From: Promethearchaeota archaeon
Lineage (GTDB): Archaea; Asgardarchaeota; Lokiarchaeia; Sigyniarchaeales; SOKP01
Direction of reading: 5' to 3'
Length of the DNA stretch: 35,656 nucleotides
NCBI GenBank assembly: GCA_016926735.1
Contig: JAFGOA010000106.1
Location: forward strand, 1 to 35,656
Of the stretch, positions 5,801 through 33,475 are shown piece after piece. Numbering within the stretch: the stretch's first letter is position 1; the number at the start of each line of letters is the position of its first letter. The translations under genes and the position numbers were made by a program. The notes beneath the pieces were generated by a model, which saw only the letters and a list, made by a program, of their open reading frames with translations, had not been told where the DNA came from and ran no database searches.

Positions 5801-7280
5801 TAATATCTTGAACTCTTTTTTTTTCATCAAATAATTGTGAATAGGTGATCTTTGTATCTGAGGTTATTATTTTCTCTAACAGATATTCCAAATAAAAATA
5901 ATATTTTGTTATAAATAGATATTTTTTTTTTGTTTTTATTTCACCTCTCAAAAAGTTATTCTTTATCATTTTAGTGATTATTGCGATAAAATCTTTAATC
6001 TTAATTTGATCTTTTGAATAACTCATATTGTATTTTTTAAGTATATCTGTTAATGAAATAATAGTTTTATTGGATGTTTCTTTATAAAGTTCCGTAGCTA
6101 AAATCTTCTCGCTTGGATTCAATCTTCTTATATAGTTCTTAAATTCAATTTTATTGTCCAATATTTTTAATTTAAAGGAATAATTCAAATTTATATAAGA
6201 AATAACCTCATTAATAACTTCATTTAATCCAAATAAGCTTTTCAATTGTTTTACATCAATATATTTTAGGTCTTCAATCTGCTTAAAAATAACTCTTTCA
6301 ATTTCTTCAATAAATTTATCCCATATAATAGAAAAAATAATAATTAATTTTGATGCTTCTATTAATTTCTTTGAAGACCAGGAGGTTCTATCATCCAATA
6401 TATATCCTAATTTTATATTGATAAAAGAATAAATTCCTGAAGGATTATAATCCATTAACCATGTATAATTATCTAATGCATATGTGATCCAAAATGTTGT
6501 ATTTGCTTTTCCATTCTCGGTTTTAAAACTATATCCTCCATTCTCTTTCTGAAAACTGTGAAGATATTGAAGACTTTTTTCTTCAACATTAAGTTCCAAT
6601 CCCAGAAATTTTAAACTTAATAATTTGAAGACTAATGATGGATCTTTCTTAAGATCTCCAATATATGAAGAAAATTTGGATTTATGTTCTCTTACTTCAA
6701 TATTAAGAATAGTAAATAATTCTAAAATAAAATATAGTGTTTTATCAAATTGACCTTTTTTACAAACTTCGCAATCTTTTTTTAAACAATGTCTAAATCT
6801 ATCTCCTTTATCGAGTGAATTTATAAAATCCTTAATTTGGGAGCGTGCAATTGCCTCACCTTTGATTTTCATAAATTCCTTTAAATCTCCCATTAAATAA
6901 AAACTCACTATGGCAAAATAAGTTGACCATATATCAGGTTTTTTTTGATTTGATTGAGGATGGGATTTAAATCCTAATTTTCCATCCTTATCTATTTCAC
7001 AACTTCGGATATAACTAAAAATCTTTTCCTTGACTTTATGATGAATTTCTTCTTTCAGATATTTAGACATCAGAACATACCAATAAATATCTTCAATACT
7101 AAGAGATGTAATATTAAAAAGATTTTTCGTAAAAAGTTGGAAAAATTCTGTAATTCTATCATATTTACTAAAATAAAAAGAACCTATATCTTGGGGTTTT
7201 AAAAGGACAAAAGAGCGAAACGGTTCCTTCTTAAAGACTGTAATATATGGATAAGCATATTTCCCTTCTATTATTGTCAA
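2853..7280 (-). CDS. 1475-aa protein: N-terminal prenyltransferase/squalene-cyclase-like repeats, several PCI-type winged helices, long coiled coils and a C-terminal TM hairpin
   Basis: Repeats GFKSHP..PDIWSTYFAI and YLHSFQKENGGYSF..NTTFW. wHTH-like segments VSIKDLAKKLNI..IKEMIDISQISGEI and LTLSFMNKELGI..LLALISQDKLNGKYDP. Long K/E heptad-rich stretches. Two hydrophobic helices end the protein. TTG start with GGTG upstream. Confidence 0.75.
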   Translation of the reverse strand: MTIIEGKYAYPYITVFKKEPFRSFVLLKPQDIGSFYFSKYDRITEFFQLFTKNLFNITSLSIEDIYWYVLMSKYLKEEIHHKVKEKIFSYIRSCEIDKDGKLGFKSHPQSNQKKPDIWSTYFAIVSFYLMGDLKEFMKIKGEAIARSQIKDFINSLDKGDRFRHCLKKDCEVCKKGQFDKTLYFILELFTILNIEVREHKSKFSSYIGDLKKDPSLVFKLLSLKFLGLELNVEEKSLQYLHSFQKENGGYSFKTENGKANTTFWITYALDNYTWLMDYNPSGIYSFINIKLGYILDDRTSWSSKKLIEASKLIIIFSIIWDKFIEEIERVIFKQIEDLKYIDVKQLKSLFGLNEVINEVISYINLNYSFKLKILDNKIEFKNYIRRLNPSEKILATELYKETSNKTIISLTDILKKYNMSYSKDQIKIKDFIAIITKMIKNNFLRGEIKTKKKYLFITKYYFYLEYLLEKIITSDTKITYSQLFDEKKRVQDIKNDIYNMTLKLRNASSQIKEEIESYLYINEIRIAKERLKFITRNALMEADFLNENIENSFNEDLYYVNIQAILRSEITDWHRSYAVLSKKIKDVESQLKEKILEKEEIHKFDNILDELDNKLSNLENYFNKEIDKFRHTLNETLEDGYSSQKFNLIVNEFNKIIKSMEKFDKAIYNVSQQITRKDEGLIKKHKELINYWIKIKEELDKIIDYYSGGLNFFKENTKVIQEIYKEVESQLLLINERAHQKVKESDFQNAFEMIKRESGLILQKNLDEIKSLQKNVKKEIKTKQKLNVLFKYLQQKLEKLEDNIIKTIAKENYSIQEKVSEERNRSKHEKFDNFVSDKISYTRNKINNYKTSLEHKIKESNVDIQEVINDFNSILEEFETFNAEYNKKLNKYKNIVKDFEDESDLTIMQWNRFVEYIHNEVKTSKEEYINQILNDKILMFAEKKGTNYVSIKDLAKKLNIKCKEATDRIKEMIDISQISGEINEDEKFVLVYTNYYYKNKELRNFIYNQIIKYNNETIGKTLSLYDSCIKNRTLGINMFELSNRVKDLKNFDTEIEERFENKIKELGIDIEDRQEYKETKDYFRNIVDDSKTAIQNIAYSLEQYKSLQHFINIEFGNINIEFSQKFLKIGEEIEKLETYEKMKSYFDNARNKLDEKIEEKQQKIEDKLKSTIDKDVMISNLEPELREFYVKIKNAFTYEYNEKIKNIENKINFKKNEILQGELLNFINNSKIQLNQLLGVLQTRVEDDIEIKEFKRAISNIDKRIDNIKVKMRQNKKDLKDLIRILNRESKDFETKNKYILDDYNQYFAEYYAIITEKTKTLEGYILKSFIDMAIKAVSNEYLTLSFMNKELGIKKQNIQDHLLALISQDKLNGKYDPRLGIYYENPEIIANLNETELEVMKKMNFKVYMFLNRLKNFTSHYYSIIGFFASMLTFSYYLLLFSNWNPAVLIIPSIIVIILLYFLFSRRKENKMDI

Positions 7281-8813: not shown

Positions 8814-10280
8814 TTATAGGTATATTGGTCCATTAAAACTCCATGTATTATTTATTCCCATATTATCGTAGATCAATGGAGATTGCAAAATACCTATTGG
8901 TTGAGTTAGACCAGAAGGTATATAATTCATTGCATAGTTAAATGCTTCTTCTATTGATGCACTCTGATTTAATTTATACCAAAATTGATGAAAAAACCAT
9001 GACCCAGCAAATCCATCTACATTTGTATTATCACGCCAATACCATGATAAATTATCAGATGATGATGAAATTAAAATAGAATTAGTAATATCATACCAAC
9101 TATTACCTATGTTTTGATTTTCATTTAAAAAATTACCACTATAACAAAAATCGGCATTAATTATCATTCTTTTAACACTAATTTCTTTAACTAGAGTATA
9201 AAACTCTAATTCAGAGATATAACTACCATCTGCTTCGAAATGAAAAGTAGCATTATTATCTGGAAGTATAGAATTCGATCCATGATCTACCATATAGATT
9301 ATTAATTGATCTTTTGAATTAAGCTTGGAAGCAAATGATCCAGAATTTGATATATTTAATTCTTGTTTAAATCTAGTAGCATTAACATTATCATTTTCTA
9401 CATCAACAATCGCATTAGTAAGATCATTCGAAATACCATCGAGAGCATTAATATCAATAGTAGAATCTCCAGTATGATATAACATAAAAAAGATATTATC
9501 GTCTATATATCCGTGATATTTAAGCGTCCAATATACTTGTAATGCTTGAGCGGGAAATCCATCTGAATCTATACTAGTAGGAGGCGATGAAGATATAGGA
9601 GGAGGTGCTGTTTTTTCAATATTAACATCATCAAAGTATATCTGATCTCCAGCATTCATTAATCCTTCTATAGATAATACTAAAATTAGTTGAGTTATTT
9701 CATTTGTTGGTGACTGATATGCTATTCCTGTCGTATTCATGAGAATCCATATTCCTAAAGGATCAAATCGATATGATGACCAATCTGTTCGTACAATATC
9801 ATTAGTAGAATTTAACCATCGTAATCCAAGACGAACTCCTGGTGGTCCAAGTGCTGATGAAAAATGTACCCATGCAGACATGTTATATTCTGCATATTTA
9901 ATTATTGAATAAAATTTTGTCCAATTATATGTAATATCAACATTAACTACTCCATTAATTAAAGATTGGAAAATTAAGATTCCATTATTTCCATCAGGGC
10001 CTGGAATTGGTGTTAAACTCTGAAATATATTTCCGTCTGAAGGAGGATCTCTTTCCCAATTAATTTCATCATCATTAAACTTTCCATCATTTCCTTTATT
10101 AAATCCAGGTTCATCATCTTTTCTATAAAAATCATTAGCACTACAAACAATAAATGCTTTTCTTTCTCCAACTGTTTCATTTGGAGGAAATAAGATTAAT
10201 ATAATTGGAATCGGAATTGAAGCAATAATCAGAATAAAAATAATAAGAATAGTTTTCTTTTTTTTTTCCATGAATTTCAC
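8814..10280 (-). CDS. Membrane-anchored clan CD (C13 legumain/caspase-like) cysteine peptidase with an inserted carbohydrate-binding-like beta-sandwich
   Basis: N-terminal KKKK plus hydrophobic anchor. Catalytic dyad motifs LIIYMVDHGS and IINADFCYSGNF. Also GSWFFHQF, SIEEAFNYA and QSPLIYD. The insert YNMSAWV..LRWLNST..IYFDDVNI is followed by a Pro/Ser linker. GTG start; an ATG three codons later is possible. Confidence 0.75.
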   Translation of the reverse strand: MKFMEKKKKTILIIFILIIASIPIPIILILFPPNETVGERKAFIVCSANDFYRKDDEPGFNKGNDGKFNDDEINWERDPPSDGNIFQSLTPIPGPDGNNGILIFQSLINGVVNVDITYNWTKFYSIIKYAEYNMSAWVHFSSALGPPGVRLGLRWLNSTNDIVRTDWSSYRFDPLGIWILMNTTGIAYQSPTNEITQLILVLSIEGLMNAGDQIYFDDVNIEKTAPPPISSSPPTSIDSDGFPAQALQVYWTLKYHGYIDDNIFFMLYHTGDSTIDINALDGISNDLTNAIVDVENDNVNATRFKQELNISNSGSFASKLNSKDQLIIYMVDHGSNSILPDNNATFHFEADGSYISELEFYTLVKEISVKRMIINADFCYSGNFLNENQNIGNSWYDITNSILISSSSDNLSWYWRDNTNVDGFAGSWFFHQFWYKLNQSASIEEAFNYAMNYIPSGLTQPIGILQSPLIYDNMGINNTWSFNGPIYL

Positions 10281-15247: not shown

Positions 15248-17050
15248 TTATTTTTTATATAATTTTTTTAAAAGTTCTTTTACTTCTTGAACAGCTGAAT
15301 TTTGTCCTAATTTTTCTAATACCTTTGAACTATCCATGAAATGATTATATGCATCATCATTATCTCCTTTTTCCATATAACATTTTCCAATATTAGCCAA
15401 CTGCATACCCATTCCTTGCAAATGTCCAAAAGACTGATTTATCGTATATGCTCCTTTAAATTGATCTAATGCTTTGTCTAATTCCCTTTTTTTAAAATAT
15501 ATCTGCCCAAGATTACTGGTAATTGTTGCTTTTAAAGTTGATTTATGCCAATCAATAATACCTCGTGAATGATTTTTATCAACCTTTTTGTTTTGAGTTA
15601 TAACCCTAGCTCTCATTGAAGGTTGAAACTTAGGATTATAATCTTTTTTTAATTCTATCATTTCAAGCTTTTCAAGAGCATTTTTAAAAGAAATTTCAGC
15701 ACTATCAAGATTTCCATTCATCATATGTACTGTTCCAATATTATTATATATTACAACAAGATCTTCATAATTTTCATCCATAGTATTACAATTTTTACTT
15801 ATATTTACATTATTTAAAGCTAATTGGAAATAATCAAGTGCTTTTTGTGTCTTATTTTGTTTAAAATAAGATAAACCTAATAAATTATAGAATTGAAAGG
15901 AATATTTTATTTTATTAGATTTTTTTATTAATTCAATTCCTTTTAAAATACAATATTCTAAATATTGAAATTTAGATAAATTATAATAAATCTGCCCAGC
16001 ACATCTATATTTTAGAATATCTGAAAAATTATTGTAATAAGTTTTTATCCAATCTGAAAATTGAGTTATATTTGATTTTTTTGAAATAAAATCATAGATG
16101 TCATTTAATTTATAGCTAAGAATACTATTCCATAAATATTCTTTAACAAAATTAGCTGTGTGTGTTTTAATATAAAAGATTTCACAATCAGTATTGTTCA
16201 AAAATTCTACTAATACAAAAGGTATATGTTTCAATTTCTCTTTTCTTTTTGTAGCTCCTCCGATATATTCTTCGATTACTAACTTTCTCTTATGTGTATG
16301 TTCAATCCAAATGATTCTATTAATATCTTTCATTTCTGATATCATTGGACCCAAATCAAAATCATCTCCACCTGAATACCCAAGTATCATAAGAGTACGA
16401 TTTTTAATTAGATTATCAATTACTATTTTTTTATAAGATTCAATTGCAAATATCTTACCTTCTTGTTTATTCCTTCCTAAAGAACTGATAGTAGTTATTA
16501 ATGATTCTCTTGTATCAACATTATCAATAAAATTCTTTTTTGAACCATGAATTTTCCAAAGAGGGTATAAATCTTTTAAGAATAATTCTTCTGGATTTTG
16601 ATATTTTGTAAAATCCTCATATGTTATTATTGGTTTTATTTTTGAGATCTTTTCATTATCTATAATTTTAACAAGAGCTTTTTCAATCATAGGGTCAAAA
16701 TTTGTAGTTAGTACATAATTACCTTGCAAGATTGAATATGCCAAAAAATAATGAATTAAATTTGGGTATGAATTTATCTCAAAATAATCTAAAAATTTTA
16801 AATCTTTATCAAAAATATCTTCGATATATTCAATTATAATTTCATATCTAAGCTTATCAAGAGCCTTTAATTTCAAAATTTTCTTTCTTTCATCTTTTGG
16901 AATAATATATTTTAGTAAAATTTCCACAATATTGCGAGCTGAAGGAAAATTAGTAGGAAAATCCATTGATATTCCAGCGCCAACTAAGTAAGTTAAATTT
17001 TCTTTTTGATTAATTAATTTCGTGCAAAATGATTTCAAATCTATTTGCAT
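15248..17050 (-). CDS. SIR2-like (SIR2_2) domain plus C-terminal TPR repeats
   Basis: YLVGAGISM..P, LTTNFD, WKIHGS, ILGYSGGDDFD. TPR helices YNLLGLSYF..A, YNNIGTVH, SNLGQIYF..ALDQF, LANIGKCY. AAGTGATCC SD upstream. Confidence 0.85.
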   Translation of the reverse strand: MQIDLKSFCTKLINQKENLTYLVGAGISMDFPTNFPSARNIVEILLKYIIPKDERKKILKLKALDKLRYEIIIEYIEDIFDKDLKFLDYFEINSYPNLIHYFLAYSILQGNYVLTTNFDPMIEKALVKIIDNEKISKIKPIITYEDFTKYQNPEELFLKDLYPLWKIHGSKKNFIDNVDTRESLITTISSLGRNKQEGKIFAIESYKKIVIDNLIKNRTLMILGYSGGDDFDLGPMISEMKDINRIIWIEHTHKRKLVIEEYIGGATKRKEKLKHIPFVLVEFLNNTDCEIFYIKTHTANFVKEYLWNSILSYKLNDIYDFISKKSNITQFSDWIKTYYNNFSDILKYRCAGQIYYNLSKFQYLEYCILKGIELIKKSNKIKYSFQFYNLLGLSYFKQNKTQKALDYFQLALNNVNISKNCNTMDENYEDLVVIYNNIGTVHMMNGNLDSAEISFKNALEKLEMIELKKDYNPKFQPSMRARVITQNKKVDKNHSRGIIDWHKSTLKATITSNLGQIYFKKRELDKALDQFKGAYTINQSFGHLQGMGMQLANIGKCYMEKGDNDDAYNHFMDSSKVLEKLGQNSAVQEVKELLKKLYKK

Positions 17051-22362: not shown

Positions 22363-23163
22363 TTATTTCAACATTTTTCTTTGAAGAGCTAACATATTAC
22401 CAACATAGAAAGCTACTAATGAAGCAACTATAATAAATGGAAAAAATGTAATTATTATCAATGCTAAAACGGGTTTTACATAGATAAAATATGATGTTAG
22501 AATATATATGAAGTATAAAGTCGAGTTAATAGCTGATAATTTTAAATTTAAAGAAAAATATCCTGCAATAAGATTGGCAATACCAAATACTAAAATAAGT
22601 TCTGCTAAAGATATAAGTACTACTTGTGGTATAATACTTATTAATATCTCATCCATAGAGAAAAATCTAAAATATAAAGAAGATGCAAAATATTCTGTTG
22701 CCATAATATTCAAGTATGTAAGCAAGATTCCTAAAGGTACAAGAACTAACCATGTTTCAAACAATCTAATTTTCAAGGAAGGGGCTATTTTCCTCCTTAG
22801 ATTTATTTCTATGATGGTATCAACATGATTTACATTTTTTGCTGTTATATTATAATCAGGAGAAAAATCATCGATAAAATCCTCCAGGATATTATTAAGT
22901 ATTTTACTTACCAAAGCAGTATTATCTCGAGCGCTTACAATTGCAGCTCCAAAAATTTCTTCTTCTGGTTTTGTTTCGAGTATTAATTTATTTCCTTCCC
23001 CAAGATCTACAAATTTTATTATGCTTTCAAGTGCTTCTCTACTAAAATTAACAATAGATGTAAAAAATCCAATTAATAGATTATCATCCTGTTCTTGTTG
23101 GACAAAATTCTTAGAATATATCAATCTACCATTTGAATTTAATATATATATTTTTTTAATCAT
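22363..23163 (-). CDS. Longin-like N-terminal domain fused to a 4-TM C-terminal region
   Basis: MIKKIYILNSNGRLIYSKNF..DDNLLIGFFTSIVNFSRE..IKFVDLG..ILNNILEDFIDDF matches the longin pattern, followed by four hydrophobic helices. GGAGG SD upstream. Confidence 0.7.
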   Translation of the reverse strand: MIKKIYILNSNGRLIYSKNFVQQEQDDNLLIGFFTSIVNFSREALESIIKFVDLGEGNKLILETKPEEEIFGAAIVSARDNTALVSKILNNILEDFIDDFSPDYNITAKNVNHVDTIIEINLRRKIAPSLKIRLFETWLVLVPLGILLTYLNIMATEYFASSLYFRFFSMDEILISIIPQVVLISLAELILVFGIANLIAGYFSLNLKLSAINSTLYFIYILTSYFIYVKPVLALIIITFFPFIIVASLVAFYVGNMLALQRKMLK

Positions 23164-23184: not shown

Positions 23185-24897
23185 TTAAGTTATCTCCAAG
23201 AATTCTACAAATTCATGAAGTGATGCTCTATATCTCTTAAAACTTTGTAGTTGTTTTCCAAAAATATGTATAATTTTTTTTATTATATTATTTGGATCTT
23301 CCTTTGGAAATAATTTATATTTTTCAAATTTTCTTTCTTCAATCACTATTGCAGTTTCTAATTCAAATAATTTTTTAATATCTTGTTGATCAGGATAATT
23401 TAGTTCAATTGATATTAATTCTGCTGATTGCGGAATTTTTTTAAGAAGCTGTTTCATAGTTCCAGAATCGACTTTTTTACCCGTTATAGTAACAATTTTT
23501 TCACATTCAGCTACTATTTTCTCTGGACCGTGAATTAAAATGGCAACATGAAATTTCATTTTAATTAATTCTAAATATCTATTTAATCGCTCTTGCTCCA
23601 ATTTAGTTATCTTTCCTTTCGGAATGGATAACATAATAATTTTAGGATTTTGGAATAGAGCTTGTGCTATTAAAAACAAATAGATTTCTAAGTGAGTAAA
23701 TTTATTTAATCTTATTTTTTTCTTTCCCAATAGACCTAATGATTCTAAGATTTTATCAATATATTCTTTTTTTCTTTTAATTCTCCTAAAAAATGAAAAT
23801 CCTTTGAATAAATGGATAATATAATAGATAATATTCTTTAATTTTTTATAGTTATATTCAGATTGTTTATTATCAATATCATTCTTTAGATTTTTTAAGT
23901 TTGATATGTTTTTGGTGATATATCTTATCGCTTTTTTCAATTTCACATTTTTTAGTTTAGGATCAATTCTATATTGTATATGAATTAAGTCTTCTAAGTC
24001 GTTTTTACTTGTTAATTGTATAAACTTACCAAAAATAGATATTACTCCTGAAAAATCAATTCTTTTACCACTGATTATATTAAAGAGTTTTTTGATGCTT
24101 AATGTTTCAATACTATCCTCAGAATTCCCTTTATATAAAAATCCAATAGATTGTCCTCTATGTACTCTAAAAGATAACTTTTCAATATTTTTTCCAATAA
24201 TAATATTATCACATAATAAATGTTGGGAATTTTTATAATAATCTTGAATTTTCTCATATTGGACTATTAAATTAATTAGGTTATTGAGTACATCAATAAT
24301 ATGAGGTGGGTTAAATTCATCCCAATTAATCAATATTTCTGAATTTATAAAATCTTCTACTCTTATAATTTTACTTAATTCCTTGGAAAAATAAAAAATT
24401 GGTCTTAGTGGATACAATTCAAAATTGATTTTAAGTTCTAAGGTTAGATTTGGAAAAGATATAAAAACTTCCCTAAAATAAGTAATATCATTTATTGAAT
24501 AATTTTCAAATTCTTCATCTAGAAGTTCTATCTCATTTTTTAATACATTTATATGATATTCTAATTCTTTAAAAATCAAATCATCAATTCTGTTTATGAT
24601 CTTTCTTGGGCTTATTAAACCATCATCATCAAAATCGGGATCAACAATTATTTGATTAAAATCAAACTCAGTTTCGATTGGAGTGTTTACTTGAACTAAA
24701 GGAAAAGCTTTTTTTAAAACGTCTTGGCTGGGGAATAATAAAACCTCAATATAACTTTTTTTATAATTTAAATCTAAAATCGTAGAAAAGCCAAATGTAT
24801 TCTTTTGATAAATCATCCAATAATGTTTAGAAAATCTAATTGCTTCTAATATCTTTTCTCTAATATGTTCTAGCTCTTCTTTTCTAGATCTAAACAA
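23185..24897 (-). CDS. UBC/RWD-like N-terminal region fused to a degenerate (pseudo) ABC ATPase
   Basis: LKINFELYPLRPIFYF..LINWDEFNPPHIIDVLNNL resembles an E2/RWD fold. The ABC scaffold is present (LSFRVHRGQSIG, FSGVISIFG, IAQALFQNPKIIML, ECEKIVTI..G), but Walker A GKT, the LSGGQ signature and Walker B DE are absent. TTG start. Confidence 0.65.
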   Translation of the reverse strand: MFRSRKEELEHIREKILEAIRFSKHYWMIYQKNTFGFSTILDLNYKKSYIEVLLFPSQDVLKKAFPLVQVNTPIETEFDFNQIIVDPDFDDDGLISPRKIINRIDDLIFKELEYHINVLKNEIELLDEEFENYSINDITYFREVFISFPNLTLELKINFELYPLRPIFYFSKELSKIIRVEDFINSEILINWDEFNPPHIIDVLNNLINLIVQYEKIQDYYKNSQHLLCDNIIIGKNIEKLSFRVHRGQSIGFLYKGNSEDSIETLSIKKLFNIISGKRIDFSGVISIFGKFIQLTSKNDLEDLIHIQYRIDPKLKNVKLKKAIRYITKNISNLKNLKNDIDNKQSEYNYKKLKNIIYYIIHLFKGFSFFRRIKRKKEYIDKILESLGLLGKKKIRLNKFTHLEIYLFLIAQALFQNPKIIMLSIPKGKITKLEQERLNRYLELIKMKFHVAILIHGPEKIVAECEKIVTITGKKVDSGTMKQLLKKIPQSAELISIELNYPDQQDIKKLFELETAIVIEERKFEKYKLFPKEDPNNIIKKIIHIFGKQLQSFKRYRASLHEFVEFLEIT

Positions 24898-25475
24898 CTC
24901 TCTTAACTCTTTGAAGTAATAATTTCTGAATGATTATTAATTCATCAAAACTATTTATATTGGTATTGTTTTAAAAGCTTTTATTTCTTTTTGAATGGTA
25001 TTCAAATTAATTGATTTTAGAATTAGACTACTAACATTTAAAGAAGTTGGATTCTTGCTTCTATGGCCATAAAACCTGAGAGATCTTTTACATAATCTCC
25101 ACTAGATTAACTTCCCGTAGGCTCTATGATAGATGGATGATAAATAATTGATTTTCTTGTTTATTAATATCTTTAATTGAACTTCCTTTGATTTGAAAAA
25201 TGTGGAGTATTATAATCTGGTGAATCCTATACATATTCATCCATATCATAAAAATTTGGTTTTCTACTACAATATAGTAATAATTTTTAATCCTAAAAAA
25301 TAAAAAAGAGAATTAAACTTTAATTATAATGCTTATTTTAGTATTATTCTTTCTTCTAATCCTTGATTTATTATCGATATGGTATTAAAAAAAAAAATTA
25401 AATATAAAAAATTCTACTATTTATTTGGTTAAGGTTTTTTATTTTTAGATTCAAAATTAAATTATTTATATAAAA

Positions 25476-25925
25476 ATGCAAATTTATGAGGCAGGAATAA
25501 TAATTGGAGGAATTCCAATTATAAGCGAAAATTTTATTAATCCTAATGAAAAAGATGAGGATTTAATTCATAAATGTGCATTATTATCATGTTTACTAAA
25601 TTTTGCCGAAACTTTAATTTCCCCCATAGAATCTTTTGAAAGTAATAAATATAATTTTGCATTTAGAAAAAGTGAAATAGAAACAGTAAACTCAGAAATT
25701 ATTGATATTTTTGTCTATTTAGTTCTCAACAATGATGTAAAATTTAATAAATATTTAAATAAAAAGATCAAACCCATTTTAAACGATATTCTTGATCAAT
25801 TTAAATTAAAATATTATGGTAGGGATTTCTCATATTGTACACAATTTATTCAGTTTAAAGATATTATTAAACAAATTCTGATTAAAAATAAGAAAAAGTT
25901 AGGATTCGAAAATTTAGGTATCTAA
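25476..25925 (+). CDS. Stand-alone longin-like domain protein
   Basis: IYEAGIIIGGIPIISENF..LLSCLLNFAE..IESFESNKYNFAF..IFVYLV..ILNDILDQFKLKY..FKDIIKQIL. Confidence 0.6.
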   Translation: MQIYEAGIIIGGIPIISENFINPNEKDEDLIHKCALLSCLLNFAETLISPIESFESNKYNFAFRKSEIETVNSEIIDIFVYLVLNNDVKFNKYLNKKIKPILNDILDQFKLKYYGRDFSYCTQFIQFKDIIKQILIKNKKKLGFENLGI

Positions 25926-26204: not shown

Positions 26205-26942
26205 ATGTTATTATTGGGTATTAATTTGGAAAATATATTGGTCATTTTTTCAATAGAAATAATCATAGTCATATTTTTCATTATATTAGGGTTTAATCTC
26301 TTAATACCAAAAGAGGATAATCTAAATATATATTTTATTCGCTTTTTTAGACTTTTTGCTCTAGGTAATCTTTTTCTAATTGTATATTTAATTTTTATCG
26401 GGATTAACTTAAATAAAATAATTGAACTTCCACTTTATTGTATTTCAATATTTTTTCTTTGTATTGCTCTCTATCATCTTAATATTGTAAATCATTTAAT
26501 TTTAAAGTCAGATATTACTTATCAAAACTCTCAAATCAGTATATCTCTTAAGATATATTATATCTTATTATTATCAGGAATAATCTTAATTGGAGTTATT
26601 TTCAACAATTTACTATTAAATTTAGATATTATTATCATAAATTCTAATTTCTTTATTTTATTATATTCTTTTATTTTTCTTGTTATTTTTTCCATAATTC
26701 CATTATGTAAAAAAAAAAAGATTATATTTGAAAATATAAAGAATAGTGACTTAAAATTTTATTTTAGTTTATTCTATCGAGGAGTTTTTGGATTATATAC
26801 TATTTTATTTCTTGAATATTTCTCAATCTTTTTATATTTTTCAATTTTTAAGATTTTATTATATCTTCTGATGATGACTTTTTTATATTGGATAAATAAA
26901 ATACATAAAGCATTAATTAAACGAATTAAAAAAAAAAAATAA
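26205..26942 (+). CDS. Hydrophobic membrane protein (about 7 TM), function unknown
   Basis: About seven I/L/F-rich segments and a basic C-terminal tail. Confidence 0.65.
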   Translation: MLLLGINLENILVIFSIEIIIVIFFIILGFNLLIPKEDNLNIYFIRFFRLFALGNLFLIVYLIFIGINLNKIIELPLYCISIFFLCIALYHLNIVNHLILKSDITYQNSQISISLKIYYILLLSGIILIGVIFNNLLLNLDIIIINSNFFILLYSFIFLVIFSIIPLCKKKKIIFENIKNSDLKFYFSLFYRGVFGLYTILFLEYFSIFLYFSIFKILLYLLMMTFLYWINKIHKALIKRIKKKK

Positions 26943-26951
26943 AAGGTTAAT

Positions 26952-29900
26952 TTATTCCATTTCCTTTATTTTCAAAGCCTTATATCTAAAATATTCCTCC
27001 ATTTTCACATCTGATTGTTTTAATTCTGAGATTGAGTCAGTTCCAAATTCATTTTCTATTTTAATTTTGATTTCACGTAAATTAAGATCTGTTAATAATA
27101 CATAGGAAAACCCTACTTTATTTTCAAGAGCTTTTTCAACACCTTCAATCGATTCCAATTTTTGAATACTATTCTCATGAACATCTTTAAATATTAATTC
27201 AATTACTCTCCCGCTTCCAGGTAATTGAGACAATAATTCATTGGGAGATCCAAAATCAATCATACCTCTTTGTCTACCAAAAACAACGATCTTATCACAG
27301 AATCTTGATTCTTCTGGATAATGTGATATTACTAATAATGTTGTTGATAATAATTCGTTTATTCTTGTTAAAGCAAGCCATAAATTTTCTCTAACAACTG
27401 GATCTAATCCTGAGGTTGGCTCATCTAAAATACAAAAAATGGGATTATGAATCAATGCCATAGCTATACTAACCCTTCGTTTCTGACCTCCAGAAAGAGT
27501 TTTTACATGAGAATGCATTTTATCTTCAATTTCTAATCCTCTCAACAACCGTTTTGCTCTGCTTGCTATTTGTTTTTCTGTTAATCCATATTGGAACCCA
27601 AAATAGATTAAATTTTGTAAAGTGGTAAAATTATTATATATTTTACCAAGATCTTGGGGGACATAACCAAAAATTGGTCTAAATCTCTTTTTATTTTTTC
27701 TAGCATCCAATCCATAAATTTCACATTTTCCTTTATATTTTCTCATTCCTAAAAGTGCTTTTATAAAAGTAGTTTTACCAGCACCACTCTCACCTAAAAC
27801 TCCTAAAATCTTTCCATGCTCTAATTCTAAAGAGACGCCATCTACAATTATTTTTTTTCCTGAATATATTTCTAAATTTTCACAATGAATTGCATTAAAT
27901 CTTTTAAGATATTCAATATTTAACCTATCTCTAATACCTAATTTAATTTTTACGAATTTATATAGAGACATATTAAGATAGGAAATAATATTTAACATGG
28001 TAATGAGTATTAAAACTATACCTTCTGCCAATATTAACCATAATATTAATCTTGTCCACGGTATAGGATCAAACGCTTGATCATATCTTACATCTTCTAT
28101 AATAATTAATCCATAAGGAGTATTTCTTAAATCCCCTCCAAATAAAGGATAATCTCCTACACCTCCAGTAGCATTACTAAAGCAAATACGGAACCATTTA
28201 GCTAGGTTTTGAATATTTTGAGGTTGACTCCGGTAATAATATAATCCTTTTGCTCCTAAATAATTTCCCATAAAAGAAGAGGGTAAATTAAAAAATAATG
28301 AAAGATATGGTATAAGCTCAAAACTTCCATCACTTCTTTGAGAATTTTTAAGAAATTTTATCGCAGATATTCTTGAAATAGGTTCTATGTTAAAAAAATT
28401 TAAATTCTCTAACCCATAATAGGTAGATATCACATCTGAATGAAATCCTATAAATAATGAAAACCCTCCATCGGCATTTTGACTCGAATATAACCAGTGA
28501 AATAGAGCTGTCTTATTAATTACGTTCAATGAATCTAAACTATTTAAACTGCTAACAGCCCAATATGTGCTTATAATCGTAGATATGTTAGTATTTATCA
28601 AGTTAAACATTGATGTATATGCAGAATTAAAATATGAAATTATTACATCTAAATCTTCTCCTAATTTAAATCCTCCATCTTGATTTTGAAGAGTTGTAAA
28701 ATATAGTTCGGTGTTTGTTTCATTTGGGAGATATGTTATATTATAGGGATGAAAAAGATTATATAGAAATATTGCACAATATGTTGAATATATAGAAGAA
28801 TTTCTGCTTGGTTGAGGTCCAAATCCTCCATCTTCTGAGTTATAACATAATTCTACATAATGTAAAATTTTATCCATTTTTAAGAAGGTTGTGTAGTTAC
28901 TGATATCGTATTGGTAAAGTGATAAAACACCATTATAATTTGATTGAAGATTTACTTGTCCTATCAATCCATTCATTGCCTGCCTTTCATATATCCAATT
29001 ATAATACAATATCTTTTGATTTTGATAGTCCGTTGTTGCATTCTCTAGCAAAGTTATACATTTCATTGCTGCCCACCCTGATTTTGAATCTGTATTATTT
29101 ACCTCTGAAAGAGAAGAAGAACTGAATCCTCCATTTGGTTCTTGACGATCTAATATATAATTTAAACTATAAGTTTCATTAAATGGATCAATTGTGATAT
29201 TTAAGATAGTTTGAGAAGCAATTGCATAATAGGTTGACCCTACATTAGGGACTCCTAATATCGTATCGGAATACCCTCCGGTGATATTCCTTCTACCAGT
29301 AAAATAAGATTCAAATACTATCATTTCAGAAGGGGTATAGGTATAATTTATTCCTAAATGGGCTTGAATACCAAAATGAGTGGTTTCTTGTGTAACAATT
29401 GTACTGTAGCTTGTTAAAGCATATCCTCCTTGTGCTAAATATCGTGTAGAATTGATGAAATTTGTAATATTTACATTTTGTATAAGTGAATACGCATTAA
29501 ATCTTTTAGCTATTTCAATAGCGTAATATGTTGAGATAATATCCGATTGCTCTATTAATGGATGATATCTAAAGCCCCATCCATTTTTTTCTAAAGAATT
29601 GTTAACAAAATTAATTATATTATCAATTTTCCCTTTTCTTAAAGGATCGTCTAGATATGATTTATTAAGTAAATCTAATATTTTAATTACTTTATATGTT
29701 GAATATAAACTTCCAATCCCTCCAATATCAGAAAAAGAACCATCAGAATTTTGTTTCTCAGATAAATAGTCTAAAAAAAAAAGCTGATTTTCGGAATTAA
29801 GAAAATTATTATTTATAGGATTTATAAGTTTAGTTAATTCAGATTCATATGAAATACTAGAAAAATTTACTGAATCTATTGCTCGATAACATTCCTCTAT

Positions 29901-30104
29901 TGATGGTTCTATAAAAAGACCATTATCTGGATTTTGATGAGTATATGAAAAATAAAACATGTTATCTTTATATTTTATAACTTCTTCATCTGTAAAGTAT
30001 TGTACAAATGGAAAATTAATGATCAAGTCAATAATAATTTCCCCAGAAAAGATTAATAATATTAATGTAGCATATAATACTCTTCTTTTTTTTTTTCGAT
30101 CTAT
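26952..30104 (-). CDS. Fusion protein: signal anchor, extracellular prenyltransferase/squalene-cyclase-like repeats, one TM helix and an intact ABC ATPase
   Basis: About 11 QxxDGGF...STYxA repeats, many NxS/T sequons, TM LILWLILAEGIVLILITML, GESGAGKTT, YVPQ, LSGGQKRR, ILDEPT, ISH. The ORF track starts at TTG 30026, but the frame is open to ATA 30104, which adds IDRKKKRRVLYATLILLIFSGEIIID. Confidence 0.85.
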   Translation of the reverse strand: MDRKKKRRVLYATLILLIFSGEIIIDLIINFPFVQYFTDEEVIKYKDNMFYFSYTHQNPDNGLFIEPSIEECYRAIDSVNFSSISYESELTKLINPINNNFLNSENQLFFLDYLSEKQNSDGSFSDIGGIGSLYSTYKVIKILDLLNKSYLDDPLRKGKIDNIINFVNNSLEKNGWGFRYHPLIEQSDIISTYYAIEIAKRFNAYSLIQNVNITNFINSTRYLAQGGYALTSYSTIVTQETTHFGIQAHLGINYTYTPSEMIVFESYFTGRRNITGGYSDTILGVPNVGSTYYAIASQTILNITIDPFNETYSLNYILDRQEPNGGFSSSSLSEVNNTDSKSGWAAMKCITLLENATTDYQNQKILYYNWIYERQAMNGLIGQVNLQSNYNGVLSLYQYDISNYTTFLKMDKILHYVELCYNSEDGGFGPQPSRNSSIYSTYCAIFLYNLFHPYNITYLPNETNTELYFTTLQNQDGGFKLGEDLDVIISYFNSAYTSMFNLINTNISTIISTYWAVSSLNSLDSLNVINKTALFHWLYSSQNADGGFSLFIGFHSDVISTYYGLENLNFFNIEPISRISAIKFLKNSQRSDGSFELIPYLSLFFNLPSSFMGNYLGAKGLYYYRSQPQNIQNLAKWFRICFSNATGGVGDYPLFGGDLRNTPYGLIIIEDVRYDQAFDPIPWTRLILWLILAEGIVLILITMLNIISYLNMSLYKFVKIKLGIRDRLNIEYLKRFNAIHCENLEIYSGKKIIVDGVSLELEHGKILGVLGESGAGKTTFIKALLGMRKYKGKCEIYGLDARKNKKRFRPIFGYVPQDLGKIYNNFTTLQNLIYFGFQYGLTEKQIASRAKRLLRGLEIEDKMHSHVKTLSGGQKRRVSIAMALIHNPIFCILDEPTSGLDPVVRENLWLALTRINELLSTTLLVISHYPEESRFCDKIVVFGRQRGMIDFGSPNELLSQLPGSGRVIELIFKDVHENSIQKLESIEGVEKALENKVGFSYVLLTDLNLREIKIKIENEFGTDSISELKQSDVKMEEYFRYKALKIKEME

Positions 30105-30120: not shown

Positions 30121-31119
30121 TTATTTTTCTTTAAATTCTTTTTCTTCTTCTTCTTTAATCCTAAGTTGAAAATATCTTCTAAAATTAGCTATATCTCTAC
30201 TCATTGATATGATTTTAATATTATTATTAATAATATATTCAATAAGATTTGAATAATTTTGCTCTAAATCTTGAATGAATACTTCTATTACGTTATTTCC
30301 TGTTCTGGAAATGTCTTTACATAATGGATATTGTTTAATTTTTTTTATTATTTTTTCATCTAAATTTTCAATAGTAAACCTTACTAATTGGCCATCGCTA
30401 GCTAATGATGATATAAGCTTATATGGCGTATCAAACTCTAATAATTTACCTTCTCTTAAAATCGCCGTTTTATCACAAACAAGAGCAGCCTCCAGATCAT
30501 GAGTTATTATAAACATTGTAGTCCCTAGTTTTCTATTTAGTTTTTTAAGATAATTAAGAATATCATATCTTTTATTTGCATCTACACCTGTAGTAGGTTC
30601 ATCTAAAAAAAGTACACTTGGTTTATGAATTAATCCTATTGCCATTGATACTCTTTTTTTCTCACCTCCACTAAGGTTTTTTAGAGGATTGTTCCATGTA
30701 TCCTCTGGAATATCTAATATTTTAAATAAATCTCTTGCTATTTTTAATGCGTTATCTTTTTTTATACCATAATTTGAAGCAAAAATCTCGACATTTACTA
30801 ATGGACTGAGGTCATAGTATAAATTTAATAATTCTAATTGAGGAACATATCCTATTTTTTCTAATATTTTTGAATTGTTCTGTTTTTTACCTGGAGTTAT
30901 ATTTGTAACGGTTACAATACCTTTCCAATGTTTTTTTTTAATTTGACAAGTTAATACTCTGATAATTGTCGTTTTACCCGCTCCTGATATTCCAAACAAA
31001 CCTATAATTTCCCCTTTATAAACTTGAAATGAAACATTATTGATTATCTGTTTTTTTTTAAAAAAAACTTCTAAATTTTTCACATTTACAACAAGATTTT
31101 TAGGACTTTTATTCTTCAA
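30121..31119 (-). CDS. ABC-2 type exporter ATP-binding subunit
   Basis: GISGAGKTT, IGYVPQ, LSGGEKKR, LFLDEPTTG, ITHD. TTG start with GAGGT SD. Confidence 0.93.
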   Translation of the reverse strand: MKNKSPKNLVVNVKNLEVFFKKKQIINNVSFQVYKGEIIGLFGISGAGKTTIIRVLTCQIKKKHWKGIVTVTNITPGKKQNNSKILEKIGYVPQLELLNLYYDLSPLVNVEIFASNYGIKKDNALKIARDLFKILDIPEDTWNNPLKNLSGGEKKRVSMAIGLIHKPSVLFLDEPTTGVDANKRYDILNYLKKLNRKLGTTMFIITHDLEAALVCDKTAILREGKLLEFDTPYKLISSLASDGQLVRFTIENLDEKIIKKIKQYPLCKDISRTGNNVIEVFIQDLEQNYSNLIEYIINNNIKIISMSRDIANFRRYFQLRIKEEEEKEFKEK

Positions 31120-31122
31120 AAA

Positions 31123-32313
31123 TTAAACCTCATATCGTCTTTTATAGAAAACCAGAAATGTAATTATATTAAGAGCTAAACTGACAAACAACAATACATA
31201 AAAGTGATATTCAAATATTGAATTTCCTTTAGATAATACACTATTTACTAATGGATTTGCATGGGATAATGGTAAAATCTGAGCAAATAGATTCAAATAT
31301 ATTGGCATACTCCCTAAAGGAACAAATAATCCACTTAGTAGAATTATTATTATAAAAGAAGCAAAGAATAATTGATTTGCTTCTGTTTTTGATTTGCTTA
31401 AAGAACTTATAAATAATCCCATGCTTATCCCAGAATATCCAATGATATATATTGCTCCAAATAACTCAAAAATAGAACCTCTTATGTATAATCCACTAGC
31501 TAATGCAGCTGATATGATTCCCAAATCTTGGACCAATAAAACTGCTGAATATGTTATATATTTGGATAAGAGAATTTCTGATTTTTTTACAGGTGTTAGC
31601 AAAAGTCTGGATATAGGATTTTCTTTTACAATCACAAGAATAGTTAATACATTTGCTATACCAAAAACCATTAATGGGAGTAATTTTATGAAATTTGCAT
31701 TTAATCCAAGATTATAATTAGAAGGTACTGAAAACTTTTCAAAAACCTTTAATTCAAATTGGGGTGAAAGATTATTATCTCTAACAAAGATTTGAATTGA
31801 ATCATATACAGCATTAATATTATCTTGTATTTTAGAAACTCTTGAAGAATCAATTATACATTCTATTATTCCAGGATATCCTAATTGTAACAATTCTGTG
31901 AATTCTATAGGTATAACTATAATAGTATTTATATTACCTATTAATAATTCTTGTCTTGCCATTTCCATGGAATAAGGTTCGTTTGTAGAATTATAATAAC
32001 CCTTTAGATCCAACAAATTTGATTTATTTACAGCTTTAAGATATGGAATTGTATAATTATCCCATGTTGATGATGTATAATTATTGGGATTTATGAATGT
32101 ATTTGAATCGTTTGATACGACAATAACGGGTAAGGGAGCAGGATCCCCTGCTTCCTCTGTCATAAAAGCAAATAATAAAATAATACCCGGAGGGATTAGC
32201 AGAGCAATAAGTAAATTCCATGGATCGATTTTTATTAGTCTAAATTCTTTTTTTATCATCTTTAATATTCGAAATAACTGGGTCTTCAATTTTTTTCTAA
32301 GATTTTGTTGCAT
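31123..32313 (-). CDS. ABC-2 type permease
   Basis: MIKKEFR, TM1, large extracellular loop with sequons, RLLLTPV..EILLSK, GLFISS..KTE..ANQ, LSGLFVP..SMP, LPLSH. Confidence 0.9.
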   Translation of the reverse strand: MQQNLRKKLKTQLFRILKMIKKEFRLIKIDPWNLLIALLIPPGIILLFAFMTEEAGDPAPLPVIVVSNDSNTFINPNNYTSSTWDNYTIPYLKAVNKSNLLDLKGYYNSTNEPYSMEMARQELLIGNINTIIVIPIEFTELLQLGYPGIIECIIDSSRVSKIQDNINAVYDSIQIFVRDNNLSPQFELKVFEKFSVPSNYNLGLNANFIKLLPLMVFGIANVLTILVIVKENPISRLLLTPVKKSEILLSKYITYSAVLLVQDLGIISAALASGLYIRGSIFELFGAIYIIGYSGISMGLFISSLSKSKTEANQLFFASFIIIILLSGLFVPLGSMPIYLNLFAQILPLSHANPLVNSVLSKGNSIFEYHFYVLLFVSLALNIITFLVFYKRRYEV

Positions 32314-32320: not shown

Positions 32321-33475
32321 TTAAACCTCCACTTTTTTAAATAAGTAGGATAAATACGCTAAAATTACATATACAGTAGAGATTATTAATAATCCTGAAA
32401 ATAATCCAAAATGAATCGACACTCCTTTTAATGTTATATCAAGAACTAATGGAATACCATAACCTAAAGGGAATGAATAGATTATTACTTTCATAGATGG
32501 AGGAAGACTTCCAACACTTACAAATTGTCCTGAAAAAAGCAATACTACAATAAAAAATACCATATATAATTGGTTTGCTTGTTGATCTGTTTTACTTATT
32601 GAAGATATAAATAATCCCATTGAAACACCGCATAATCCTATTGCTAGAAATACTAAAAACAATTCAAATAATGATCCTAAACAATAAAGCCCAAAAATAG
32701 CAGTTGCGATAAATATTTCACCTGCTTGAAGAATCATAATTAATGAATTAGCTATTAATTTACTTAATATGATTGATTTTTTTGATGTGGGTGTAATTAA
32801 CATTCTCGGTAATGGCCCTTCAGAAACGATTGATAAACATGAAAGATTCATGGTTGTACCTATTATTATTAAAGGTATTGTTAAAGCAAACGCATAATTT
32901 AATACTTGGGATTCCCAAAAAGGAACCTCAAATTCTAAATAGGGAATTAACATAGAAAAGTTAGCAGTTTTTCCTATTTCTAGTTTAAATAGTGAAATAG
33001 GCTCTAACATTGAAACATTAATTGATTTTATAGCGTCAAAATTACTTGCATCAATGAAATATAATAATTCCGTGTTTACATTATTTTCGATAGTTTCTGA
33101 AAAATTTTCTACTAAAACTATAAAAACATCAATAATTTCATTTTTTAGCATCTGTTCACATTCAATATAAGCATTATTATACGCAAATTCATTAGATACA
33201 TTATAATAAGTCTCTAAACCAAAAGAAGTAAGATTATTTTGAAAAATTGAAATAAAAACATCATCATATTCAGTAGAATTAGAAGGAAAATCACCAAAAC
33301 AATCCATATCGTCTTTAGTTATTATAGCGGCTCTAAAAAATCCCGATGGCCCTCCTCCAGATGTTAATCCGAAAATTATTATTAAAATAAGTGGGATTGT
33401 AAATAATAAAATTAGAGTTCTTTTATCACTTCGTAATCTTCCTAGCTCTTTCCTTACTAAACCACTTATATACAT
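32321..33475 (-). CDS. ABC-2 type permease
   Basis: LVRKEL..L.SDKRTL, RMLITP..IILSK, GLFISS..KTDQQANQ, FSGQFV..LP, FPLGY. Confidence 0.9.
   Translation of the reverse strand: MYISGLVRKELGRLRSDKRTLILLFTIPLILIIIFGLTSGGGPSGFFRAAIITKDDMDCFGDFPSNSTEYDDVFISIFQNNLTSFGLETYYNVSNEFAYNNAYIECEQMLKNEIIDVFIVLVENFSETIENNVNTELLYFIDASNFDAIKSINVSMLEPISLFKLEIGKTANFSMLIPYLEFEVPFWESQVLNYAFALTIPLIIIGTTMNLSCLSIVSEGPLPRMLITPTSKKSIILSKLIANSLIMILQAGEIFIATAIFGLYCLGSLFELFLVFLAIGLCGVSMGLFISSISKTDQQANQLYMVFFIVVLLFSGQFVSVGSLPPSMKVIIYSFPLGYGIPLVLDITLKGVSIHFGLFSGLLIISTVYVILAYLSYLFKKVEV

Follow-up and report, generated by a model that had tools for sequence, protein, structure and literature searches.

The 35,656-nt stretch analysed here (hereafter the window; Promethearchaeota archaeon, class Lokiarchaeia, contig JAFGOA010000106.1) raises the question of what a protein that resembles an ATP-binding cassette (ABC) ATPase, has lost the motifs of one and carries an N-terminal half of another kind does beside an ABC exporter. 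The gene concerned (23185..24897, (-) strand, TTG start) encodes 570 aa in the order module 1, module 2 (both UBC/RWD-like), pseudo-nucleotide-binding domain (pseudo-NBD) and C-terminal domain (CTD). Its product is named FAM, and its neighbours are named D266, u149, u245, PT-ABC (the fusion ATPase), ABC332 (the 332-aa ATPase), PermB and PermA. With a probability of about 0.55, FAM is considered to serve a six-gene ABC-2 (DrrAB-type) exporter of Lokiarchaeia as an accessory subunit without enzymatic activity, docking in the way proposed below. Within this reading the architecture of FAM is held with high confidence, and its docking partner (an intact NBD, most likely that of the fusion ATPase) is named only tentatively from sequence. 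FAM is filed as a relative of the ABC and UBC superfamilies by profile or fold and as a member of no curated family.

The first-pass annotation had described an intact open reading frame (ORF) encoding a catalytically dead ATPase. The ORF listing bears out the former (570 aa, internal stops = 0). A protein homologue search with FAM returned 71 proteins at 33-92% identity, of which the named sources were all Loki-type metagenome-assembled genomes; most were named 'hypothetical', with ABC ATPase appearing in one NCBI and six JGI names. A Pfam scan of FAM gave no ABC_tran match at E<=1 (best E-values 0.081 and 0.11, both to unrelated models), and an NCBIfam scan gave sub-threshold ABC matches only (best 27.8 bits vs a cut-off of 304). 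The pseudo-NBD (23443..24234, (-), aa 222-485) was recognised from a profile comparison with PDB sequences, a profile-profile alignment and a motif census. The FAM profile (A1, built from 33 homologues) matched 249 distinct ABC-type sequences of the PDB at E<=1; the best match was MacB (5lil_A, E 1.7e-9, query 375-483), and OpuCA (8s7v_K) covered query 239-515, i.e., the whole NBD. In the profile-profile alignment with the fusion ATPase, the Walker A place of FAM (24112-24156, (-), aa 252-262, GFLYKGNSEDS, aligned as GFLYKGNSE-DS) faces GVLGESGAGKTT, Walker A there being GESGAGKTT. The signature place (23686-23700, (-), aa 400-404, FTHLE) faces LSGGQ of the signature LSGGQKRR, and the Walker B place (23620-23640, (-), aa 420-426, IIMLSIP) faces Walker B FCILDEP; further along, LIHGPE faces ISHYPEE and LLKKIPQSAELISIEL faces LLSQLPGSGRVIELIF.

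Replacement of Walker A, signature and Walker B had been noted for the window protein, correctly, and is true of the whole family: in the census of the window protein and 65 full-length orthologues, the patterns G....GK[ST], xSGG[QE] and hhhhDEP were each found in 0/66, anywhere in the sequence. The H-loop His is retained in 52/66 members, and a P(Q/E)A stretch stands at the Q-loop place. FAM is thus homologous in sequence over the length of an NBD, has no Walker A, signature or Walker B and stays below the Pfam and NCBIfam cut-offs. Its C-terminal half is, as far as sequence can tell, an ABC NBD plus CTD with all catalytic motifs lost, a predicted pseudo-ATPase, so that the earlier description is upheld by the PDB profile, the profile-profile alignment and the census.

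Regarding the origin of this half, BLASTP compared FAM with the fusion ATPase at E 2e-8 (22% identity, 210 residues) and with the 332-aa ATPase at E 0.002. Using hhalign, FAM aa 222-570 aligned with the C-terminal 330 residues of the fusion ATPase family at a probability of 100% (E 2.1e-50, 292 columns), and the alignment extends to column 345 of 349, i.e., across the CTD (23188..23442, (-), aa 486-570), an accessory domain common to both proteins and the most constrained part of FAM. Alignment with the 332-aa ATPase family gave a probability of 90% (E 1.5e-6, 170 columns), and the two operon ATPases aligned with each other at E 7e-54. A HMMER profile of the FAM NBD plus CTD ranks the fusion ATPase first in the genome (E 2.8e-12), which is also the best non-self genome match of a CTD-only profile (residues 961-1045 of the open frame, E 0.01). 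In a single-sequence control against 15 ABC ATPases of the genome, the fusion ATPase came out on top with 79.0, followed by unrelated ATPases with 72.6, 70.3 and 66.3; the 332-aa ATPase scored 44.3. An NBD tree of 59 sequences, in which 15 FAM, 15 fusion and 11 332-aa-type domains stood beside 18 further ABC ATPases encoded by the genome, recovered the FAM clade with an ultrafast bootstrap (UFBoot) of 100 and an SH-like approximate likelihood ratio test (SH-aLRT) value of 99, a branch uniting FAM and the fusion ATPase with 93/75, and a branch separating all three operon NBDs from the rest with 83/57; in an earlier tree of 53 rows the branch of FAM plus fusion ATPase had 82.

The kinship of FAM therefore appears specific to the fusion ATPase, that to the 332-aa ATPase being much weaker and not specifically supported. 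The NBD plus CTD of FAM shares its stock with that of the fusion ATPase, and it is our reading that FAM arose from the fusion-type NBD plus CTD. FAM had been proposed as a paralogue of the neighbouring ABC ATPases in general, with a post-NBD segment parallel to those of both and with an expected grouping beside both in an NBD phylogeny. These proposals hold for the 1024-aa fusion protein in alignment, CTD match and tree, and they hold more weakly for the 332-aa protein, for which the figures are those of the weaker alignment and branch above. FAM and this DrrA-type ATPase, encoded in the same operon, are homologous over the whole length of NBD and CTD and share 'H.PE' at the H-loop place and '(I/L)P(Q/G)SG..I.(I/L)E' at the start of the CTD. 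Relative to the fusion ATPase, FAM carries about 35 additional aa within its helical subdomain, together with two N-terminal UBC-fold modules; it has no Walker A, signature or Walker B, no membrane segment (by hydropathy), and scores below the cut-offs of Pfam ABC_tran and NCBIfam.

How the motifs were lost can be followed in more distant relatives. Six distant regions were taken by genome search from other families of the class of the window, and five of the six hold FAM orthologues (23-26% identity, 518-622 aa). All five adjoin a fusion ATPase and a 332-aa ATPase; permease genes are visible at 4/5 loci, L079 ending at a contig end. The orientation is divergent in two (L075, L077), and D266 follows in two of the five. 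Matched against the fusion-tail profile, L075 and L077 FAM gave E 4e-40 (vs 7e-21 and 3e-18 against the 332-aa profile), and the other three gave E 3e-24 to 1e-25. Walker A is present in 0/5, its place being shortened, and the P-loop is by sequence missing in all FAM orthologues examined. At the signature place, L075 and L077 read LSEGEKRR and LSDGEKRR, and '(E/N/K)PE.(G/N)LN' is kept at the Walker B / D-loop place in 4/5; of the signature and Walker B motifs, the distant orthologues retain only LS(E/D)GEKRR and an 'EP'. Since deep-branching orthologues keep a signature-like motif, the series suggests the stepwise decay of a former asymmetric NBD partner that would have contributed to a pair with one consensus and one dead site. 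As a natural series from members with a signature-like motif to members with none, FAM would document how an ABC ATPase becomes a structural adaptor. In asymmetric ABC heterodimers (TM287/288, TAP1/2, CFTR NBD1) one NBD loses catalytic residues and turns structural or regulatory; in transporters of the TM287/288, TAP1/2 and CFTR type, the degenerate NBD has kept its ATP binding and belongs to the same chain as a membrane domain. The deep-branching orthologues resemble that stage, with Walker A lost and a signature-like motif kept. FAM of the window differs from such halves in that all motifs are lost, the protein is separate and soluble, and it is the third NBD-like protein beside two intact ones.

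The genes next to FAM encode, as classified by Pfam and NCBIfam, an ordinary DrrAB-type ABC-2 system. PT-ABC (26952..30026, (-), 1024 aa) consists of a prenyltransferase-type alpha/alpha-toroid followed by one hydrophobic segment (aa 655-689) and by an intact DrrA-type NBD with CTD (Pfam Prenyltrans 1.6e-32 and ABC_tran 9e-28, NCBIfam drrA 2.6e-48). ABC332 (30121..31119, (-)) is an intact DrrA-type NBD with CTD (ABC_tran 5.9e-25, drrA 1.5e-52), and the ABC-2 permeases PermB (31123-32313, (-)) and PermA (32321-33475, (-)) match Pfam ABC2_membrane_3 at 3.5e-25 and 3.3e-20. D266 (22363..23163, (-)) is a 266-aa membrane protein with a soluble N-domain of about 125 aa and a hydrophobic C-half (hydropathy segments between aa 130 and 261), and is the fixed downstream partner of FAM. 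In the window FAM lies 21 nt upstream of D266 and 2054 nt downstream of the fusion ATPase gene, a distance that includes the opposite-strand genes u149 (25476..25925, (+), 149 aa) and u245 (26205..26942, (+), 245 aa, very hydrophobic, in a region of 17.7% GC). The toroid domain of the fusion ATPase (aa 1-650), which lies ahead of the single hydrophobic segment of 35 residues, shows no evident signal peptide and, judged by eye, an abundance of N-x-S/T sequons.

A search for related loci returned 72 loci from 72 species genomes, of which 66 contain a FAM ORF. Among these 66, a fusion ATPase was found in 64, D266 in 62, ABC332 in 52, PermB in 45 and PermA in 44, many of the missing neighbours falling at contig ends. 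The order PermA-PermB-ABC332-fusion-FAM-D266 lies on one strand. Between the stop of the fusion ATPase and the first possible FAM start there is a median overlap of 14 nt (n=64), apart from three loci with gaps of 585, 1643 and 1685 nt, and the median distance from the FAM stop to the D266 start is 25.5 nt (n=62). FAM directly follows the fusion ATPase in 61 of the 64 other loci with both genes; the three that depart are L002 and L003, which have the same insert as the window, and the locus with the 585-nt gap. The first-pass view that FAM was originally part of the ABC operon and was split off by two opposite-strand genes is confirmed by this synteny. Only three loci, those of the window, L002 and L003, have u149 and u245 at this place; L002 and L003 are, by their coordinates, two of the three other genomes of the same genus, and the insertion is therefore recent and of genus level.

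Searching 400 genomes of the phylum with the profile of the N-terminal half (N-half) gave matches only within the class of the window, with 0/261 genomes of other families matched, and clear FAM orthologues (E<=3.4e-51) were found in 79/400. Of the 135 genomes of the family of the window, 76 have both FAM and D266, two have FAM or D266 alone in each case (2+2), and 55 have neither; in three of the four lone cases the gene sits at the beginning of a contig, and the remaining genome has a completeness of 58%. FAM is co-inherited with the operon and with D266. It is also under purifying selection and not decaying: dN/dS, the ratio of nonsynonymous to synonymous substitution rates (Nei-Gojobori), was 0.19 (dS 0.15) and 0.16 (dS 1.1) against the two nearest relatives; more distant pairs are saturated at synonymous sites. 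By part, the values were 0.27/0.12 for the N-half, 0.17/0.22 for the pseudo-NBD and 0.04/0.08 for the CTD, so that selection is strongest in the CTD; the range quoted for the NBD part is 0.17-0.47. The two low overall values come from exactly the lineages with the insertion, and the neutral decay for which the first-pass annotation had suggested looking is not seen there.

The N-half was modelled for aa 1-221 (model m3ecd986e4177, mean predicted local distance difference test (pLDDT) score 90.6, predicted template-modelling score (pTM) 0.76) and is predicted to form two helix / beta-meander / helix modules linked by a long helix (aa 97-129). Module 2 (24235..24585, (-), aa 105-221) has the UBC/UEV/RWD fold and contains YPxxP (aa 162-166), W192 and PPH (197-199); the (Y)PxxP of FAM is one residue shorter than the YPxxxP that follows strand 3 in RWD domains. 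In the N-half alignment (A2, 46 sequences, aa 1-221) E160, P163, P166 and W192 show no variation and Y162 and H199 hardly any, and the YP..P / W / P..I pattern reported earlier is therefore a family trait. In the independent structure aligner VIA, module 2 (aa 109-218) matched Ubc8 with Z 10.1 and a root-mean-square deviation (rmsd) of 2.6 over 97 residues, the VPS37A UEV-like domain with Z 9.4, BRISC 6h3c_C with 9.0, GCN2 RWD with 8.9, Tsg101 UEV with 8.6 and Vps23 with 8.0. In this first pass 23 of 48,161 chains reached Z>=8, and 48 of 50 rows were E2 (ubiquitin-conjugating enzyme), UEV or RWD entries by title, 7zw0_sj and 5n9j_A being unclassifiable from theirs; chain identities in multi-protein PDB entries were judged by title throughout. 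A second pass gave Z up to 10.7, with Z>=8 for 173/998 chains; the top matches of the two passes (Z 10.1-10.7) have an rmsd of 2.5-2.6 over 97 residues. In the predicted structure, the UBC fold of module 2 is beyond reasonable doubt.

Foldseek with aa 1-221 found no PDB match at E<=1e-3. The 39 rows listed were, by entry title, all E2s or tandem-RWD/double-UEV complexes, and they include the KMN/Knl1 complex as the best match, the Fanconi core, FANCL, BRCA1-A and CENP-O/P; the two-module model matched 8ppr_K (KMN/Knl1) at 2.8e-3, 9a0j_L at 4.7e-3, 6gvw_C (BRCA1-A) at 6.3e-3 and 3zqs_A at 8.5e-3, over 224-250 columns each. The E2 matches had a TM-score of 0.5 and an rmsd of 3.5-3.8 over about 110 residues. 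The UBC/RWD/UEV-like fold expected for the N-terminus is supported by these comparisons, and entries containing BRE (BRISC and BRCA1-A) are among the matches. No hit at E<=1e-3 was obtained in a viral structure library; the best named cluster in the ESM Atlas for aa 1-221 was UFC1 at 0.75, under the lead level of that tool; and a PDB sequence-profile search with the N-half returned nothing significant (best secretagogin, E 0.089).

Module 1 (24586..24897, (-), aa 1-104) is predicted to contain a helix, three long strands, a short helix, a short strand and a C-terminal helix, and is weakly RWD/UEV-like. Folded alone (aa 1-112, model me176817d6df4) it reached pLDDT 89.2 and pTM 0.83. Its best Foldseek match was the VPS37A UEV-like domain (E 0.049, probability 0.91), followed by many UFC1 entries of low probability, and its best VIA matches were yeast RQC (8aaf_e) and the VPS37A UEV-like domain (8e22) with Z 7.6, then 7.2, GCN2 RWD with 6.6 and RNF25 RWD with 6.4. 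By title, 33 of its 50 VIA rows were E2/UEV/RWD/E2-like, seven Mediator and one unclassified, six belonged to other folds (THO, a mitoribosomal protein, 1ylx_B and three frataxins), and three more (listerin twice, SEA complex) we take to be RWD regions. Mediator subunits are termed RWD/UBC-like in passages of PMC6601020, where the UBC superfamily is also defined by an N-terminal helix, a beta-meander of 3-5 strands and C-terminal helices. This order of elements is present in both FAM modules, and the prediction that module 1 has the same UBC-type fold as module 2 has moderate support. An internal duplication was considered as a source of the two modules; hhalign gave a probability of 0.2%, with no detectable sequence similarity between them.

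The window protein has no Cys within its first 221 aa, as had been stated, its first Cys being at aa 228. Among the 66 members 25 have no Cys in the N-half, the sole frequent Cys column is 208 in the last helix (29/66), and no column in aa 1-221 is conserved as Cys at the position of the E2 active site (HPN-Cys, after strand 4); the two modules are therefore taken to be RWD/UEV-like and not enzymes. They resemble the tandem-RWD/double-UEV scaffolds (Knl1 C-terminus, CENP-O/P, FANCL, BRE/BRCC45) in consisting of two consecutive non-catalytic UBC-fold modules. They differ from these in the fused pseudo-NBD, in having no sequence similarity and no kinetochore, Fanconi or BRISC partner genes and, given pair TM-scores of 0.24-0.35, in the orientation of the modules. 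Regarding BRE/BRCC45, whose two UEV-like domains bridge an MPN/JAB deubiquitinase complex, the match to 6gvw_C covers 224 columns, that to 6h3c_C is of module 2 only, and the operon has no JAB gene. The 'eukaryotic signature' folds of Asgard archaea include non-catalytic E2-fold (RWD/UEV) domains. Here such a fold is encoded in a unit of six genes that is strictly conserved and inherited together around an ordinary ABC-2 pump. The products form a defined set open to expression, joint purification and imaging, and tandem UBC-fold modules in an archaeon bear on the origin of eukaryotic double-RWD scaffolds.

A sequence bridge to the UBC superfamily runs through two paralogues of module 2, two other proteins matched by the N-half profile in the genome of the window (E 2.7e-9 and 2.9e-5). 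The first (561 aa, contig C191, L073:7380-9044, (-)) contains UBC/RWD in four copies and ends in a Cys-rich part of RING-like type. Clear profile matches fall on copies 2 and 3 (domain E 1.1e-11 and 1.5e-7), faint ones on copies 1 and 4; Pfam assigns copy 1 to UQ_con (35.4 bits, cut-off 27) and copy 4 to RWD (22.9 bits, cut-off 22.8) and gives a faint Prok-RING_1 match. Because profile and Pfam matches fall in different copies, this bridge rests on the kinship of the four copies. Homologues with ORFs of 550-600 aa exist in most genomes of the family. The second (a 243-aa open frame, contig C31, L074:800-1459, (-)) joins module 2 to a JAB/MPN domain with an HSHPSG...D motif (Prok-JAB 29.8 bits, cut-off 25). 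Both lie on other contigs among unrelated housekeeping and glycosylation genes. They share with FAM the YP..P, NW and NPPHI pattern at sequence level, and unlike FAM they have neither NBD nor module 1. Against 1.84 billion representative proteins, the N-half profile reached only 60 clusters at E<=1e-3. Pfam scans of 24 weaker library matches gave UQ_con and/or RWD in 11 (one also with Prok-RING_1), Prok-JAB in two, no domain in ten and a low-complexity match in one. RWD scores in the module-2 paralogues ranged from 22.9 to 41.5 bits vs the cut-off of 22.8, and BRE was matched weakly in one (19.6 bits vs 25.8).

From these observations FAM is proposed to use its pseudo-NBD/CTD as a docking module beside an intact NBD, most likely that of the fusion ATPase. 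It would occupy the place of a second NBD, forming an asymmetric pair that at first had one consensus and one degenerate site and would now be purely structural. Once docked, FAM would keep its tandem RWD modules in place on the cytoplasmic side of the transporter, as a platform that would bind a protein partner, either the soluble N-domain of D266 or the RWD/RING/JAB paralogue enzymes of the lineage. In this role FAM would modulate or localise the pump instead of powering it.

A number of points weigh against the accessory-subunit reading. The NBD fold of FAM is assigned from sequence profiles and not from structure. The margin of the fusion ATPase over unrelated ABC ATPases in the single-sequence control is small, the fusion ATPase is not among the top genome matches listed for a profile of the NBD core without the CTD, and the branch joining it to FAM (93/75 in the 59-NBD tree) is only of moderate strength. 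On the N-terminal side, module 1 reaches Z>=8 with no chain, its 7.6 being in the middling range of the tool, and Pfam UBC, RWD and UEV models reach 0/46 N-halves at E<=1 when members are scanned one by one; neither UQ_con (PF00179) nor RWD (PF05773) matches. The docking is drawn from sequence, predicted fold and gene linkage, and the physical contact is hypothetical. A pair of FAM and fusion ATPase would have no canonical ATP site, because FAM of the family of the window lacks Walker A and signature, and two intact ATPases with two permeases would already make a complete pump with no obvious NBD slot for FAM. Finally, 55 of the 135 family genomes, several of them 100% complete, are without the whole unit, which is therefore accessory and gained or lost as a whole.

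Among the alternatives, the one closest to the first-pass proposal is a ubiquitin/ESCRT adaptor, in which the UEV/RWD-like modules would bind ubiquitin, a ubiquitin-like protein or an E2/E3 and couple the transporter or its cargo to sorting or turnover. Module 2 resembles ubiquitin-binding UEVs (Tsg101, Vps23 and the VPS37A UEV-like domain) and BRISC 6h3c_C with the Z-scores given above, its sequence paralogues are fused to Prok-JAB and RING-like fingers, and the genome encodes two canonical E2s and also carries ubiquitin-like genes. UEV domains of the Tsg101/Vps23 type bind P(S/T)xP peptides as well as ubiquitin. These ubiquitin and E2 genes, however, are on other contigs; no ubiquitin, E1, E2, JAB or ESCRT gene is found in or beside the operon in the window, the 66 related loci having been scored only for homologues of the window's own genes. 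The fold by itself shows no function, and RWD domains are mostly general protein-protein modules according to passages of PMC6601020. On balance this adaptor role is considered improbable, at well below the odds of the accessory-subunit reading. The UEV/Vps23-type ESCRT-I proteins of Asgard archaea (PMC9192718, bioRxiv 10.1101/2023.07.25.550441 and PMC10936438) likewise have a non-catalytic E2-fold domain; FAM differs from them by the absence of a Vps23 core, of a steadiness box and of an ESCRT neighbourhood. According to passages of PMC6601020, the same archaea possess several E2s, a homologue of Uev type and 'an RWD-like domain'. An ABC ATPase fusion is not mentioned in the passages found of PMC10936438, where the lone 'ABC' mention is ProX, and no description of FAM or its operon was found in full-text literature searches or in passages of PMC6601020, PMC10936438 and PMC7997004; supplements of Asgard catalogues may list the family by cluster number.

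About equally improbable is that FAM and D266 form a membrane-anchored signalling or scaffold module of their own, built from the RWD part and the D266 N-domain, which would be merely co-regulated with the pump while the pseudo-NBD stays undocked. The two genes are adjacent and co-inherited, at the three loci with the insertion (the window, L002 and L003) the pair has remained together and intact despite its separation from the other four genes, and L075 and L077 FAM are transcribed divergently from the other genes. Against this, the pair is found in the genomes examined only beside the four transporter genes, L075 and L077 FAM have no adjacent D266, and the NBD plus CTD likeness is specific to the fusion ATPase with the CTD as the most constrained part, which fits a retained contact with an ATPase partner. 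A complex prediction of full-length FAM with D266 scored 0.00 in two runs without controls and speaks neither for nor against binding. Regarding D266 itself, Pfam scans of 32 members gave only weak longin-family matches (Sybindin in four, best E 0.025; Intu_longin_1 in two, best 0.0033), and a PDB sequence-profile search found nothing (best E 0.077). Paralogues of its N-domain occur in other proteins of 252-284 aa on contigs C115, C141, C85 and C174 (E 7e-10 to 3e-8). The C174 gene is separated by about 1 kb from that of a 330-aa ABC ATPase, the second-ranking genome match of the FAM NBD plus CTD profile, and the two may represent a second, simpler pairing of a D266-like protein with an ABC system.

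A non-hydrolytic ligand sensor is less probable still. The degenerate pocket would bind a nucleotide or small molecule, or an acidic loop would bind Ca2+ or Mg2+, and the pump would be gated allosterically. The loop DPDFDDDGLISPRK (24601..24642, (-), aa 86-99) lies between the modules, is of DxDxDG type and is nearly invariant: P87, D88, F89, D90, D92, G93, L94, P97 and K99 are invariant or nearly so in the 46 sequences. It fits DxDxDG at positions 1, 3, 5 and 6 and may be a divalent-cation site. Further points in favour are the H-loop His and P(Q/E)A stretch described above and the constraint on the NBD part. However, nothing is left of the P-loop, whose place is shorter in the distant orthologues, the acidic loop has Lys and not Glu at position 12, and the EF-hand matches are weak and not significant (secretagogin as above; EF-hand_6 in 1/46 members).

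Equally doubtful is an extension of the accessory-subunit reading in which the toroid-ABC fusion and FAM form an asymmetric NBD pair, one ATPase moving an outward-facing alpha/alpha-toroid while the tandem-RWD platform of the dead partner recruits RING/JAB RWD paralogues or ubiquitin-like proteins. If true, it would mean a prokaryotic membrane transporter wired to a ubiquitin-type system by a double-RWD scaffold, and a living relative of the type of scaffold later used by eukaryotes in BRISC, the Fanconi core and the kinetochore. That FAM is the decaying remnant of an ATPase gene, severed from its operon and heading for loss, would agree with the loss of all catalytic motifs, the insertion in the genus of the window and the gene in two pieces at L062, and it is very improbable in view of intact full-length ORFs in 65/66 loci, the low dN/dS (0.16-0.19) precisely in the insertion lineages and conservation down to 23-26% identity across the class.

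The inserted genes of the window are 83% and 73% (u149) and 57% and 34% (u245) identical to those of L002 and L003, respectively. The u149 family comprises small proteins of 137-173 aa, with eight copies at E<=2.6e-8 in the genome of the window, u149 included, and u149 has no Pfam or NCBIfam match. A kinship of u149 to the N-domain of D266 was considered and found unsupported (BLASTP E 0.51, hhalign probability 0.7%). The spacer upstream of FAM (24898-25475) measures 578 nt, vs 306 and 279 nt in L002 and L003, and holds a GC-richer stretch near 25080-25150; Rfam and tRNA scans of the window gave no match for it.

Elsewhere in the window, a 1475-aa protein (2853-7280, (-)) has PCI near its C-terminus as its sole Pfam match (26.9 bits, cut-off 22); PCI domains are characteristic of the proteasome lid, COP9 and eIF3. 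A 600-aa SIR2_2 plus TPR protein is encoded at 15248-17050 (-). A 488-aa protein with a legumain-type Peptidase_C13 domain is encoded at 8814-10280 (-), and a homologue of it lies within 10 kb of FAM in 14/66 loci.

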